A DNA stretch of 64,000 nt from positions 32,001-96,000 of IMG/VR virus record IMGVR_UViG_3300029288_000066; one strand, given 5' to 3'. A program made the position numbers and the translations under genes. Position 1 is the first letter of the stretch, and each line of letters begins with the position of its first letter. The notes beneath the pieces are model-generated. The model was given only the letters and a program-made list of their open reading frames with translations, searched no databases and had not been told where the DNA came from. Shown here one piece after another: positions 19,069 through 58,632 of this stretch. This stretch comes from a virus. Lineage: Duplodnaviria > Caudoviricetes.

Positions 19069-19512
19069 TTAATAATTATTCTTGGTTTCTTTCTCTAGTT
19101 CTTTAATTTTTAAACTCATCTTTTTATCATATAAATGTTTTCCCTTAGCCAATACAACGACAACTTTTATCAACCCTTTTTCGTTGATGAATATTTTGGA
19201 TGGTACAATAGTAAGCCCTTTAATTTGAGTTTTTTCTCTGAGTTTTTTAATTTCCCTTTTCGTTAGAAGAAGTTTCCTTTCTCTTTTCGGCTCATGTTGA
19301 TTATAACTTGAGTTTTTATATTCAGAGATGTGAAGGTTCTTTAAAAAGATTTCATCGTCTTTTATATAACAATAAGCATCAGTGAAGCTTGCAGCTCCGT
19401 TTCTAATTGATTTTACTTCGGAACCAAAAAGAACAATCCCAGCTATAAATTCCTCTATAAAAGCAAATTCAAACCTGGCCTTGTTGTTTTTTATGCTAAT
19501 GCTATTTTTCAT
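19069..19512 (-). CDS. smpB: SsrA-binding protein SmpB
   Basis: NNKARFEF..AGIVLFGSEVKSIR; HEPKRERKLLL; AKGKHLYDKK. Confidence 0.95.
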   Translation of the reverse strand: MKNSISIKNNKARFEFAFIEEFIAGIVLFGSEVKSIRNGAASFTDAYCYIKDDEIFLKNLHISEYKNSSYNQHEPKRERKLLLTKREIKKLREKTQIKGLTIVPSKIFINEKGLIKVVVVLAKGKHLYDKKMSLKIKELEKETKNNY

Positions 19513-31596: not shown

Positions 31597-32672
31597 GCAA
31601 AAATTTTTCTAAATTCATCATAGTTTTTATCAATTATAAAAATAAAACTATATCCTTGACTTAAACATGTTCTTTGTTTTGTCAAGTTCTTGTCTAAATA
31701 TTTTTTGTACGTATAGGTTGATTTTATTTCAATTATTAAATTTTTACTTTCCAAGTAAAAATCAGAAAAGTAAATTCTTTTTTTACCTTCGAAAAAATAT
31801 TGTATCGTTTTACCGCCTTTTATCGGAACTTTATTGTCAAAACAAAAATCCAAAAAATGCTTTTCATATGTTCCACGGTAATATAATCCAGTTTTCTTGT
31901 GTGTTTTTCTTTTAAACCCACTCTTTTGTTGTTTTTCGTGTATTTCTTTGTTTTGTGTGGCGTGCTCTACTCCATATTTTTTTAAACAAACACTTTTTAT
32001 TTTTTTCAGTATATTCTTGCTTTGAAATACGTTTTCTACTCCATATTTTTCCATACAGGTTTTTTTCTTTTTATTCTTTACACTTTCATTTTGACTAGGA
32101 TTTTCAACACCAAAGTTTTTTAAACATGTTATTTTCTTCTTGTTTTTCACGTCCTCACTTTTATTTGGAGAATTAACCCCATATTTTTTTAAACTTGTTT
32201 TTTTTGATTTTTTTGCCACTTTTTTATTCTGCATTGGATTCTCTGCTCCATATTTTTCCATACAAGTTTTTTTCTTTTTAATCTTTACATCTTCGTTTTG
32301 ATTTGGGTTCTCAACGCCAAAGTTTTTCAGACATGTTTCCTTTACTTTGTTTTTTATTATTTCACTTTGACTTATATTGTTAACTCCATATAACCTTAAA
32401 TAAGTTTGTTCTTTTTTCCCCATAGAACATTTAGAGCTACAGCAATACCACCCCTGATTCTCAAAATTTATAGCATATACATAATAACGAAGACTTTTTT
32501 CTTTTCCGCAAATATCACATTTTGCACGAATAATCGCACTACTTTTTCTCTTTAAATGTTTCACGGGTACCAACATTTTTTTCCCAACAAACAAATTTTC
32601 GTATCCCAAATTTTTAAAATGCTTAAAATTAGAAGTGGCGACAATTATTTCAACCTCTTTAGTTAGTATCAT
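31593..32672 (-). CDS. Homing-type endonuclease: KYGVEN repeats plus PD-(D/E)XK domain (cassette 3)
   Basis: CDICG, TC..KYGV.NP.Q repeats; YRGTYE..F; YFSDFY...LIIEIKS.YT; paralogue of 39558. Confidence 0.8.
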   Translation of the reverse strand: MILTKEVEIIVATSNFKHFKNLGYENLFVGKKMLVPVKHLKRKSSAIIRAKCDICGKEKSLRYYVYAINFENQGWYCCSSKCSMGKKEQTYLRLYGVNNISQSEIIKNKVKETCLKNFGVENPNQNEDVKIKKKKTCMEKYGAENPMQNKKVAKKSKKTSLKKYGVNSPNKSEDVKNKKKITCLKNFGVENPSQNESVKNKKKKTCMEKYGVENVFQSKNILKKIKSVCLKKYGVEHATQNKEIHEKQQKSGFKRKTHKKTGLYYRGTYEKHFLDFCFDNKVPIKGGKTIQYFFEGKKRIYFSDFYLESKNLIIEIKSTYTYKKYLDKNLTKQRTCLSQGYSFIFIIDKNYDEFRKIFA

Positions 32673-50505: not shown

Positions 50506-51117
50506 TTAAATTTTATCGTATTTATTTCTTAACACTTGAATCACGTCCCATGCGTCTTCCACCGCAGTATGGGTTACGCCTTTTTCTATTCCAGCTCTTT
50601 TTAAACACTCATCTAAAGATGGTAACACTTCGTCTTTTCTCCAATCAACGTATAGGGTTGAGGGGTCGATTATTCTTCGACTGAAGAGCGGCGCTACCAA
50701 TTCTTTCCATCCTGGAACGTTTACCAAGAATCTTCCGTCAAAAGATGCATAGTTTTTGCCAGCAATGTTGTTTTTTTTAGAATACTTATTTTTTTCTACC
50801 AAACACACTGTTAGCCACTGCTCAAACTTTTCAGCCAATTGCCATTCTTTTATAATATTGAACTCCTTTGTCATCCTAGCTCTTTCTTCACCATCTGCTG
50901 TAGAAAAATCAGACAATATCTTTATTATTCTTTGATTCATATTTAAAGCAAAAACACTTCCAGAAAGAACTCCTCGCTCTATTATACAATTGAACTTTGG
51001 AACATCTTCGTAATTTAAAAGGCTTTCAGTGTCTTCTACAACAGCACCAAACTCTAATATTAGGTCTGTTTCTGGATTAACTCCAGTTGTTTCTAAATCT
51101 ATGCTTATTATAATCAT
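50506..51117 (-). CDS. DEDDh 3'-5' exonuclease
   Basis: SIDLETTG, GKNYASFD, THTAVEDAWD. Confidence 0.85.
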   Translation of the reverse strand: MIIISIDLETTGVNPETDLILEFGAVVEDTESLLNYEDVPKFNCIIERGVLSGSVFALNMNQRIIKILSDFSTADGEERARMTKEFNIIKEWQLAEKFEQWLTVCLVEKNKYSKKNNIAGKNYASFDGRFLVNVPGWKELVAPLFSRRIIDPSTLYVDWRKDEVLPSLDECLKRAGIEKGVTHTAVEDAWDVIQVLRNKYDKI

Positions 51118-51208
51118 AACTTTTAATTTAAAACATTTAAATGCAATAATAAGAATAAAAAACGAAACTGCAAAAAAAATCCCCACTTTTTTATGGTGGG
51201 GACTAATA

Positions 51209-51988
51209 TTAAGTTTTTTTTATGTTTATAATTGTTTTTAATCTATCCAGTTCTCTTTTGGCCACCGCAGCCTTTTCAAAATCATCATCTTCTATATATT
51301 TTTTCAATTGAATGTTTAAAATTTCTATTTTATTTTTATTCATTTGCTCGTTATTTTGATTTTTCCTGATTTTCAACCTTTCCTCTTCCGTTTTATAATA
51401 AGCTATCTCAAACAATATGCAACGAATGGCCTCATATAAAGTTATCCTAGTTGCAGCGTCAAAAAAAGAAATGAGATTCTCATCATCCATGCTTTCGCAC
51501 CCCTCATGATAATTATCCCTGTAAACTTCTACTAAATTGTTTTGCGATATTTTTATATTTTTTAATTCATTAACTGAACAAATACTTATAGGTATAAACA
51601 AATCAAACCCATCACTTGTTTTACCCATTCCCACAAATACAGGAAATAAGTCAATCGTACTTACTTTGTCAAAAGTAAGAAGCTCAAAAATCTTTGATAT
51701 TTCTAAAAAATCCAACTTAAAATCACCTTCATCGACCAAATCTTCGTCCAACATCTTTCCAAATTCTCCCAACTTCCTTCCATTTAATTCTTGACAGAAA
51801 ACAACATCAAATACATCTTTATCTCCAACAATCAACTTAAAGAAAGTACCAAATGTTACATCCTCATCAATCTCCACTTCACAAGACAAATAGTTTTTTA
51901 AACCTTTTACAGCACTAATCTTAACATCCTTGTCTACAGTTTCTTCCAGAAAGATTTTTCCGCTTTTTTTTATTTTTATTATTTTCAT
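51209..51988 (-). CDS. Hypothetical protein with C-terminal UVR domain
   Basis: LNIQLKKYIEDDDFEKAAVAKRELDRL; TATTTATA at 52005. Confidence 0.6.
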   Translation of the reverse strand: MKIIKIKKSGKIFLEETVDKDVKISAVKGLKNYLSCEVEIDEDVTFGTFFKLIVGDKDVFDVVFCQELNGRKLGEFGKMLDEDLVDEGDFKLDFLEISKIFELLTFDKVSTIDLFPVFVGMGKTSDGFDLFIPISICSVNELKNIKISQNNLVEVYRDNYHEGCESMDDENLISFFDAATRITLYEAIRCILFEIAYYKTEEERLKIRKNQNNEQMNKNKIEILNIQLKKYIEDDDFEKAAVAKRELDRLKTIINIKKT

Positions 51989-52252
51989 ATCTAGTCAGAT
52001 TTTATATAAATAACTAAACATTTTCTAAATTTAGAAAAATTTTTTTCTTTTTTCAATCATTAAATTTTGTTGTTTTGTTTTTTTTTTATATATTTACAAA
52101 TAGTTAACGTTCGTTTGTATTTTTATTGGCATATCAAATGACATGGGTTCAAATCCCATATACTCCACTAAGACATTAATTACAAAAGGGGTATGAAGGC
52201 ATTAGAATTTGATAGAGTGGGTAAAGAGAGAGTGTTAGCAAAAGCTTTAAAC

Positions 52253-52333
52253 GGCGAAAATTTTATAAAAGAAGCTATGGCTCTAGCCAAAATGAGTTAC
52301 AGCCAAGCACCTGTTAACACCCTTGCGGCGTAA
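52253..52333 (+). other. tmRNA tag reading frame (A)GENFIKEAMALAKMSYSQAPVNTLAA*
   Basis: TAAAC then GGC resume codon, C-terminal LAA degron. Confidence 0.8.
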
Positions 52334-52342
52334 ATAGGTATA

Positions 52343-52375
52343 AAAGCCCTCTCTCCTTTAGGTTTGAGGGTTTTT
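52343..52375 (+). terminator. Terminator hairpin after tmRNA, abutting the convergent HNH stop
   Basis: AAAGCCCTC...GAGGGTTTTT. Confidence 0.6.
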
Positions 52376-53132
52376 ACATCTTATTCCTTTTGGTTATACA
52401 GTTATCAAAAGCATCTAAAGGTTGAAAATTTGTGTAATGATTTAGTCTATATATTTCTTCTTCTTCTGTTTTTGCAGATGATATTGGAATTATATGGTCT
52501 AGTTGCCAGAATTTATTCTTTATCATTTTTTCATTTTTAAATCTTCCAACGTTATTCCAACACATCCAAGGCTCAAATTTGCTTTCCAAATACAATTTAA
52601 ACTCCTCAAAAGAACATCCAAGTATTTGTTCAGTCTTTGTGTTTTTTTTAAAACCACTTGTTCTTAACGAGCTACTTATTAAGCTTCTAATGTTGCCGCT
52701 CAATTTATATAGCGGGTCTTCATTTCTCTTCCGCTTGTTAAAACTATTAAGGTAAGATGGGTTCTTTATTTTCCACAACTTATCATATTCTTTTTTATAT
52801 TCTGGATGAGTTATTTTAAACTTTATTGTTCTTTGTTTTATTTTATCTCTGTTCTTTTCTCTTGATGCTTTTGCTTTCTTTTTAGAACATAATATGCAAA
52901 AACAATGAAGCCCATCTTTCTTAGATTTGCTTTTCCAAAATTCTTCAATTGGGCTTTCTACTTTACAACAGGGGCATATTTTAAATCCACGTTTTGCTTT
53001 TTTTCTAATTAAACCACCTTCTCCTTTACATTTCTTACATACAGATGCATATCCGTCTTTTTTAGTTCTATTTCTATAAAACCATTTAACATCTTTTTCA
53101 ACACAGCAACATTTACAAAATTTTGTTTCCAT
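52374..53132 (-). CDS. HNH-type homing endonuclease with two zinc fingers
   Basis: CKCC..K....F...KDG....CK.C x2; TEQILGCS; WQLDHIIP; HYTNFQPL. Confidence 0.78.
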   Translation of the reverse strand: METKFCKCCCVEKDVKWFYRNRTKKDGYASVCKKCKGEGGLIRKKAKRGFKICPCCKVESPIEEFWKSKSKKDGLHCFCILCSKKKAKASREKNRDKIKQRTIKFKITHPEYKKEYDKLWKIKNPSYLNSFNKRKRNEDPLYKLSGNIRSLISSSLRTSGFKKNTKTEQILGCSFEEFKLYLESKFEPWMCWNNVGRFKNEKMIKNKFWQLDHIIPISSAKTEEEEIYRLNHYTNFQPLDAFDNCITKRNKM

Positions 53133-53134
53133 TT

Positions 53135-53485
53135 TTAGTCTGTTATAAAACACCTTATTTCATTTGGCAAATTAGAACCCTGCAGGTACAAATATATTTT
53201 TTTATACTTATTCTCTTCAATAAAATCAATAAAGGTAAATTTTTTAGAAAATCTAAAGGCTTGAGTTAAATCGGGGCAATTAACAATGTGAATATTATAT
53301 CCAAACAACTTTATAAGCTCTTCTATCTGTGATTCTATCAGAATAATCTTTTTAGCTTTCACATCTTCACCTATGAAAAAATGAATTTTGTTTGACATAT
53401 CAGTTTTTTCATGCTCACATATTTCCTGAAATTCTCTCTTTAGTTCAGAGTCAATCCTTATTGTGATATTTTCTTCTTTTTTCAT
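53135..53485 (-). CDS. RHH (RelB/CopG-like) protein coupled to the HNH gene
   Basis: NITIRIDSELKREFQEICEHEKTDMSNKI; TATTTATG at 53528. Confidence 0.7.
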   Translation of the reverse strand: MKKEENITIRIDSELKREFQEICEHEKTDMSNKIHFFIGEDVKAKKIILIESQIEELIKLFGYNIHIVNCPDLTQAFRFSKKFTFIDFIEENKYKKIYLYLQGSNLPNEIRCFITD

Positions 53486-57918: not shown

Positions 57919-58632
57919 TTATTTTTTCTTCTTTTCAAGAATGTTATCAATCAAATGATATTCTTTTGCTTCAACAGCGCTCATCCAGCAATCACGGTCT
58001 GAATCTTTTTCAACCTTTTTAAATGGTTGTTTTGAATGGAGGGCAATAATGTCATAAAGTTCTTTCTTCATCTTGTTAATTTCTGCCGCTGCAATCTCTA
58101 TATCAGAAGCCTGCCCATAAGCTCCGCCCATTGGCTGATGAATTAATGTTCTTGAGTGTTTTAATGCACTTCTGTGTCCTTCAGCGCCAGCACATAGCAG
58201 AACAGCTGCCATTGATGCTGCTATCCCAGTATTCACCGTTACAATTCTTGGAGCAACATATTGCATTAAATCATAAATACCAAGTCCTGCATATACCGAG
58301 CCGCCTGGAGAATTTAGATATATATTAATGTCCGCATCTTTGTCTACTGATTCTAAAAACAGCAATTGGGCATTAACAATGTTGGCAATCATATCGTCGA
58401 TAGGAAGACCAAGAAAAATGATTCTGTCAGCCATAAGCCTCGAAAATACGTCCATCGAAATTGCATTCATTTTTCTCTCCTCAATAATGTTGGGGGTCAT
58501 TGCAACAGGTCCTGCCGCATTAACTCCAAGAGTAGTTCTCTTGTTTATTGCAGAATGATAGTTGTGTAAAGTCATGCTACTAATTCCCCTATGCCCCATG
58601 GCATATTTTTCAAATTCACTTCTGTTCTTCAT
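57919..58632 (-). CDS. clpP: Clp protease proteolytic subunit
   Basis: MDVFSRLMADRIIFLG, YLNSPGGSV, AASMAA, IHQP, DSDRD. Confidence 0.95.
   Translation of the reverse strand: MKNRSEFEKYAMGHRGISSMTLHNYHSAINKRTTLGVNAAGPVAMTPNIIEERKMNAISMDVFSRLMADRIIFLGLPIDDMIANIVNAQLLFLESVDKDADINIYLNSPGGSVYAGLGIYDLMQYVAPRIVTVNTGIAASMAAVLLCAGAEGHRSALKHSRTLIHQPMGGAYGQASDIEIAAAEINKMKKELYDIIALHSKQPFKKVEKDSDRDCWMSAVEAKEYHLIDNILEKKKK

Follow-up and report, generated by a model that had tools for sequence, protein, structure and literature searches.

The segment 52100–52375 (+) is very probably a functional, circularly permuted (two-piece) tmRNA gene, one that is fixed across a clade of large phages infecting Bacteroidota. 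The window in which it lies, the whole 64,000-nt stretch analysed here, corresponds to positions 32001–96000 of the 228,886-bp IMG/VR record IMGVR_UViG_3300029288_000066, whose completeness is estimated at ~82%. The original prediction, made from the letters of the window, had described a permuted tmRNA with a 26-residue tag; ARAGORN, run independently, reports a permuted tmRNA whose tag is identical, and inspection of the sequence finds every element where it had been placed (Table 1). Permuted tmRNAs of Bacteroidota phages are already present in public annotation, namely that of crAss-like phages, where they are left undiscussed. What is new is the long tag shared by the whole clade, the lack of room for pseudoknots and a family that falls below Rfam thresholds.

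Table 1. Features of the permuted tmRNA gene and of associated genes (window coordinates)
Feature	Position	Strand	Evidence and remarks
Promoter-like region	52066..52096	+	Sequence; block kept across homologue alignment
Acceptor piece (~70 nt after CCA completion)	52100..52168	+	ARAGORN, MFE fold, covariation, per-sequence acceptor check
Outer P2 strand of acceptor piece	52103-52112	+	Pairs with 52230-52239
Invariant internal loop of acceptor piece	52113-52119	+	
Middle P2 strands	52120-52126 and 52221-52227	+	
Inner P2 strand of acceptor piece	52132-52139	+	Pairs with 52207-52214
T arm	52143-52159	+	
Acceptor 3' strand	52160-52166	+	Discriminator A (A73) at 52167
Intervening spacer, predicted to be removed in maturation	52168..52187	+	20 nt
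5' part of coding piece	52188..52252	+	ARAGORN, MFE fold, covariation, acceptor check
Acceptor 5' strand	52188-52194	+	G3 pairs with U70
D-loop analogue	52195-52206	+	
13-nt linker with conserved resume context	Between outer P2 strand (ends 52239) and 52253	+	
Tag reading frame	52253..52333	+	GGC resume codon, 26 codons GENFIKEAMALAKMSYSQAPVNTLAA, TAA 52331-52333; ARAGORN, codon analysis
P5-like hairpin holding last tag codons and stop	52309-52339	+	MFE fold, RNAalifold
Intrinsic terminator hairpin and T run	52342..52375	+	MFE fold; predicted 3' end of coding piece (~190 nt)
SmpB gene, 147 aa, complete	19069..19512	-	Pfam SmpB 168 bits; ORF
ClpP proteolytic subunit	57919..58632	-	Pfam CLP_protease 240 bits; NCBIfam ClpP subfamily model above cutoff
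Conserved gene divergent from tmRNA	51209..51988	-	~30 homologues, 37-61% identity; synteny

An Rfam scan at gathering thresholds gives no match at the tmRNA locus. Under relaxed thresholds, the merged permuted-tmRNA model RF04321 aligns along its whole length with 37.7 bits against a cutoff of 47 (E = 5.5e-6), and two homologues score 35.2 and 33.4 bits, also under 47. Among the lineage-specific models RF01849, RF01850 and RF01851, the best is beta_tmRNA with a partial match of 17.8 bits (cutoff 84), and the other two score lower. The ~82%-complete, 229-kb record contains no one-piece tmRNA detectable by RF00023, which returns only partial, tRNA-level matches of at most 18.4 bits. ARAGORN reports a tmRNA in only 4 of the 11 homologues. 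With the family under the Rfam cutoff and ARAGORN calling only some of its members, such genes are consequently missed or mis-typed in the annotation of phages and MAGs.

Folded without constraints, the region 52095–52378 is more stable than its shuffled versions (z = -3.26; 0/200 shuffles fold as well). The minimum free energy (MFE) structure consists of the acceptor stem, the T arm and, in place of an anticodon arm, a composite P2 of ~25 bp; one hairpin forms within the tag, and the P5-like hairpin and the terminator hairpin with its T run come after it. The acceptor stem and inter-piece helices of the original prediction are thus recovered. The D-loop analogue deviates from the usual UUCGAC-like motif. 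As had been noted, CCA is not encoded, A73 being followed by C-T-A.

Further evidence for this structure comes from comparison with related metagenomic phage contigs, which provided 10 homologues and thus 11 distinct tmRNA sequences including that of the window. The tmRNA is detected by nhmmer in all fetched syntenic contigs, each time in a gene-poor gap between the neighbour gene and a divergent sigma-70 factor gene. In a structure-aware alignment built with a purpose-made covariance model, compensatory double changes are seen in 17 of the 37 pairs, and 94.8% of the cells are base-paired, compared with 84.7% in shuffles and 43–53% when the partners are slid by 1–3 columns; 0/500 shuffles reach the observed value on any measure. 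Within P2, double changes affect 4/10 pairs of the outer and 6/8 of the inner helix and none of the middle one, and three of the five T-stem pairs covary. This alignment slips register in three sequences. Examined directly, sequence by sequence, all 11 members have 7/7 acceptor pairs, G3:U70 and A73, written with four different stem sequences. The structure covaries across the 11 homologues and is far beyond chance. Three members that have one acceptor stem sequence in common (L076, L079 and L080) combine a 5-bp T stem with a T loop of 6 rather than 7 nt. The spacer measures 16–22 nt in ten members and 71 nt in L089 (L089:2015-2356, minus strand), where it carries a hairpin of its own; its poor conservation in the homologue alignment is as expected of discarded sequence.

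The same comparison bears on the idea that a tmRNA gene was once captured here and is now decaying and inactive. The sub-threshold Rfam score and the loss of pseudoknots would fit such a relic. However, homologues that have diverged by up to ~40% keep every helix by compensatory changes, together with the open tag frame, the promoter and the terminator, and we give inactivity almost no weight. When the locus was compared by blastn with 50,697 phage records, nothing matched. GTDB species genomes, scanned with a two-block pattern, gave no match either and therefore offer no sign of a bacterial or prophage copy. An exact-pattern scan of IMG/VR (T arm + acceptor + GGGG) returned only a one-piece tmRNA followed by a terminator.

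The pseudoknots that flank the tag frame are typical of tmRNA without being universal, and PK1 is usually considered important. Here, the 13 nt between the outer P2 strand and the resume codon leave no room for PK1, and 3' of the stop codon there are only the P5-like hairpin and the terminator. The flanking pseudoknots are absent, the RNA has room for neither PK1 nor PK2, and its description as a minimal, pseudoknot-poor phage tmRNA holds. Two other contacts were considered and dropped. The terminator loop could form a pseudoknot with the purine-rich P2 strand, but in the window only, and this pairing is not conserved. A block of the acceptor piece (52110–52119) that includes the invariant internal loop (52113–52119) is complementary to 52249–52253 in the resume context, where the first G of the resume codon follows four linker bases. 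Both blocks are invariant, and this pairing is unsupported, as the two changes in L086/L087 do not compensate. If the RNA works, nothing beyond a tRNA-like domain, a single long helix, the tag frame and one hairpin is needed to do the job of a tmRNA. Such a minimal layout would be useful to those who model the threading of tmRNA through the ribosome and to the question of which purpose the pseudoknots serve.

The tag frame is open in 11/11 homologues, with a length of 25–26 codons. Across them, variable sites at codon positions 1, 2 and 3 number 14, 11 and 21, and of the ten invariant residues eight are written with 2–4 synonymous codons. By this coding-type substitution pattern, the tag is selected as a peptide and evolves in the manner of coding sequence, and the conservation of the frame that the original prediction would lead one to look for is indeed found. 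The frame lacks a start codon, the resume codon GGC is invariant, and the linker block before it is invariant in 9 of the 11 sequences. It might be argued that a conventional small protein gene or leader peptide simply lies beside a tRNA-like element: the peptide is conserved, it has an internal ATG at codon 9, and ARAGORN once chose a shorter frame (L087). We find this highly improbable, because conservation starts at the GGC and not at the internal ATG, because the start-less frame opens with an invariant GGC after a tmRNA-type resume context, and because a split, permuted tRNA-like half with G3:U70 and A73 pairs with the segment immediately 5' of that frame.

An RNA that binds SmpB, EF-Tu or ribosomes as a decoy, blocking host trans-translation without any tagging, would be compatible with the absent pseudoknots and the unusual D-loop analogue, which could mean impaired function. 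There is also a precedent of a kind in the tmRNA-like RNA of mycobacteriophage DS6A, which has no CDS and is cited, in the tmRNA database paper, as inhibiting endogenous tmRNA in E. coli. A decoy would, however, have little use for a tag frame kept intact in 11/11 homologues with coding-type substitutions and synonymous changes at invariant residues, or for a conserved resume context, and the phage brings its own SmpB, which is needless for a pure decoy of the host system. We consider this explanation improbable, if somewhat less so than a small protein gene or a relic. Coding-type selection on the tag in itself excludes a relic and leaves a pure decoy improbable.

How a functional permuted tmRNA would be produced can be outlined from the sequence, from which we infer where the RNA is cut, how it is charged and used for tagging, and what becomes of the proteins that carry the tag. 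The promoter-like block consists of a TTTG box (52066–52069), a 19-nt spacer and a -7-like box (52089–52096); the latter fits TAnnTTTG, the -7 promoter consensus of Bacteroidota known from Bacteroides promoters, in 7/8 positions. The transcript is predicted to start near 52100. At the other end, the terminator stem shows compensatory changes across homologues (RNAalifold on the full-length alignment, columns 312–342); a simple terminator scan missed it because its loop is long. The conserved promoter would thus start a precursor of ~275 nt near 52100, and the intrinsic terminator would end it near 52375. RNase P would cut 5' of the G at 52188, the 20-nt spacer would be trimmed back to A73 or C74, and the CCA-adding enzyme of the host would complete the end; nothing more should be required by way of processing. 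The expected products are an acceptor RNA of ~70 nt and a coding RNA of ~190 nt, joined by the 7-bp acceptor stem and ~25 bp of P2. Two separate mature pieces are expected because a free 3' CCA end is needed. The missing CCA is normal for this genome, as 47 of the 53 tRNA genes that ARAGORN identifies in the phage record also lack an encoded CCA; the record itself has no detectable CCA-adding enzyme. Charging by the host alanyl-tRNA synthetase would then rely on G3:U70 and A73, the SmpB encoded by the phage would escort the charged RNA into stalled ribosomes, and translation would resume at GGC 52253, adding the 26-residue tag.

The phage SmpB has ~50 homologues with 63–81% identity, and in at least four relatives its gene is on the same contig as the permuted tmRNA. 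Its nearest named cellular counterparts are SmpBs of Bacteroidota (50–56% identity), and outside the clade the nearest phage SmpBs belong to Prevotella Lak megaphages and other huge phages (44–54%). A C-terminal sorting domain of type IX secretion, the sorting tail being a hallmark of Bacteroidota, is found in a phage protein at record positions 162617–162790, outside the window, and in a relative (L078:1-3816). The sorting tail and the Bacteroidota-like SmpB make the Bacteroidota host of the original prediction probable, and the sorting domain points to a host with type IX secretion. The record further encodes a tRNA with a CTA anticodon (TAG suppressor type; record positions 196604–196678, outside the window). 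Recoding of TAG was rejected, as reading through TAG adds next to nothing to the stop-free coverage of frames.

The ClpP gene is located 5.5 kb from the tmRNA in the window; among relatives, it adjoins the tmRNA's neighbour gene in L080 and lies ~4 kb from that gene in L079. Its assignment as a head-maturation protease was rejected, the NCBIfam model of that kind scoring below cutoff. We regard the phage ClpP as a candidate downstream protease component for tagged proteins. As to the neighbour gene itself (51209–51988), its AlphaFold model (pLDDT 86) has a beta-rich N domain and a UVR-like C-terminal helical hairpin; Pfam and NCBIfam give a weak UVR/McsA-tail match only. Foldseek finds nothing at E <= 0.001, the beta-rich N-terminal domain having no PDB match, and VIA-align covers the C-terminal helical hairpin only, with a Z of ~8, which is the background level for helices. 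In most relatives a gene for a DEDDh/RNase T-like 3'-5' exonuclease (50506–51186, minus strand, in the window) adjoins the neighbour gene; that this enzyme might trim the 3' trailer of the acceptor piece is pure speculation. On the other side, between the tmRNA and the sigma-factor gene, 52374–53485 (-) holds a 259-aa ORF without a family and a 116-aa ORF with a weak RelB/DinJ antitoxin match. No viral relatives were found for the first of them (52374–53153), and the two ORFs are an insertion specific to the window phage. L089 and L090 also have two ORFs, alike in size, between the tmRNA and the sigma gene. Elsewhere among the relatives no gene separates the tmRNA from the sigma gene, except in L076, where an IS605 TnpB gene takes this place.

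The tag itself is best conserved in an internal stretch around M-S-Y-S-Q-A-P. Its Ala-rich, hydrophobic C-terminus varies (LAA, LVA, AAA or ANA, then TAA), which weakens a simple reading as a ClpX degron. It is probably the conserved inner block, and not the Ala-Ala end alone, that sets the adaptor or protease for tagged proteins. A published precedent is the 27-aa ssrA tag of Mycoplasma, which is read by Lon (PMC8403727). It is likewise unusually long, and internal residues rather than the C-terminal pair alone hold its recognition signal (PMC8403727). The two tags have no sequence similarity, however, and the Mycoplasma tmRNA is one-piece. The Mycoplasma switch is explained by the loss of ClpXP (PMC8403727), whereas the window phage brings its own ClpP. 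In the light of this precedent, the original prediction that a long tag could redirect the choice of adaptor or protease is reasonable. The inner block, the variable C-terminus and the phage ClpP together suggest a phage-directed route for tagged proteins. Given that SmpB and ClpP are both encoded and that the inner block is better conserved than the C-terminus, it may be that large phages, while infecting, tag and degrade proteins by a route of their own.

The background to the original prediction had named only bacterial groups as the classical sources of two-piece tmRNAs. Phage cases have been published for the OM43 phage Melnitz, pelagimyophages and cyanophages, and 53 of 133 distinct isolate-phage tmRNAs are two-piece forms according to ARAGORN (PMC9004378). 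Like the window gene, those of Melnitz, pelagimyophages and cyanophages are phage-encoded, circularly permuted ssrA genes (PMC9004378). Unlike it, the tmRNAs of these marine T4-like phages group with alphaproteobacterial or cyanobacterial lineages and their hosts are Proteobacteria or Cyanobacteria (PMC9004378); Melnitz carries a glutamine riboswitch, and within the phage collection none of these tmRNAs has blastn similarity to the window gene. With the two-piece tmRNAs of alphaproteobacteria, betaproteobacteria and cyanobacteria the window gene shares the permuted order, the acceptor and coding pieces joined by pairing, and a maturation presumed to depend on RNase P and a nuclease acting at the 3' end (PMC3985003). 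Known two-piece coding pieces, however, typically keep PK1 and PK2 (PMC3985003).

Huge phages with both tmRNA and SmpB are also known (Al-Shayeb 2020, PMC7162821). The Lak megaphages, LR756504 and a 310-kb IMG/VR phage resemble the window phage in being huge, in their large tRNA sets and in encoding both components. Their tmRNAs, in contrast, are standard one-piece molecules of 350–410 nt, long enough to accommodate pseudoknots, and they exceed the RF00023 cutoff. A permuted copy was sought in the Lak phages (Lak-A2, Lak-B5), the LR7565xx records and the 310-kb phage, all of which have one-piece genes only. The tmRNA of the 310-kb phage has an acceptor stem identical to that of the window gene, a similar resume context and a 20-residue tag.

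It is against this background that the origin of the permutation has to be judged. The original prediction took it for an independent event in the window phage; as a one-off it does not stand, the permuted gene being a clade trait (11 homologues) that is related to the crAss-like copies. A permutation independent of the alpha, beta and cyano lineages is plausible, if rather doubtful. It is made plausible by the Bacteroidota-type SmpB, by huge phages with related SmpBs and one-piece tmRNAs, by the host-like tag ends and by the fact that no lineage model fits. The case is weakened by a gradient of scores to the beta model across phage tmRNAs and by the alignable tRNA-like core, which at ~65 nt is too short for a tree. 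It is tempting to go one step further and to view the compact, pseudoknot-free permuted tmRNAs of Bacteroidota phages as a fourth origin, from a one-piece form of Bacteroidota type, with the 12-codon block gained by the tag in the window branch handing tagged host or phage proteins to an adaptor or protease of the phage's choosing. We put this forward as a tentative proposal only. Under it, the permutation would have arisen inside phages, in the window family together with the crAss-like group, and the host default would be replaced by the phage ClpP working with a host unfoldase, or by Lon.

Of the 47 viral contigs that a loose layout pattern retrieves from IMG/VR, 27 have a permuted tmRNA according to ARAGORN. 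When 11 loci were scanned against Rfam, nine permuted tmRNAs exceeded the RF04321 cutoff and only two fitted a lineage-specific model; on RF04321, permuted tmRNAs of phages outside the window family range from 39 to 117 bits, mostly above cutoff. The 2025 tmRNA database, with roughly 12,000 permuted sequences, lists, uncommented, 48 permuted genes under Bacteroidota genomes, and these may include binned phage contigs. Our literature search found no paper on the window tmRNA family, on the long tag or on permutation in crAss-like phages.

The nearest outgroup of the window tmRNA family is a group with G-N-N-F-V tags of 13–14 residues, found on contigs of ~50–200 kb and 72–81% identical to the tmRNAs of cr50_1, cr10_1 and cr55_1. 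The tmRNA of the uncultured crAss-like phage cr50_1 (MT774375, Suoliviridae) is annotated as 'transfer-messenger RNA, SsrA'. The tmRNAs of these crAss-like phages, which are of roughly 100 kb, are detected by the window-family model (nhmmer E = 1.5e-7, 50–54 bits). On RF04321, the two copies tested score 39.3 and 47.5 bits, near the cutoff of 47. The host phylum is the same, the order is permuted and the spacer is short in most copies, that of cr50_1 measuring ~210 nt. The resume codon lies ~170 nt into the ARAGORN call, hence PK1 has no room there either, and motifs outside the universal tRNA-like core are common to both, as are the first tag codons G-x-N-F. The outer P2 is different, and the crAss-like copies end at a downstream tRNA and not at a terminator. 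A tRNA gene directly follows the permuted tmRNA in L096 (MT774375 39374–39869), L038, L063 and L069, so that in crAss-like phages RNase P could also make the 3' end of the coding piece; a RAGATH-22 RNA occurs near the tmRNA in L038 and L063. The two also differ in tag length, 13–14 residues in crAss-like phages versus 25–26 in the window family. Where the original prediction had counted about 17 extra residues, alignment of the two tags looks like an insertion of 12 codons instead, and it suggests that the long tag is a crAss-type frame into which these codons have been inserted before the final Ala-Ala.
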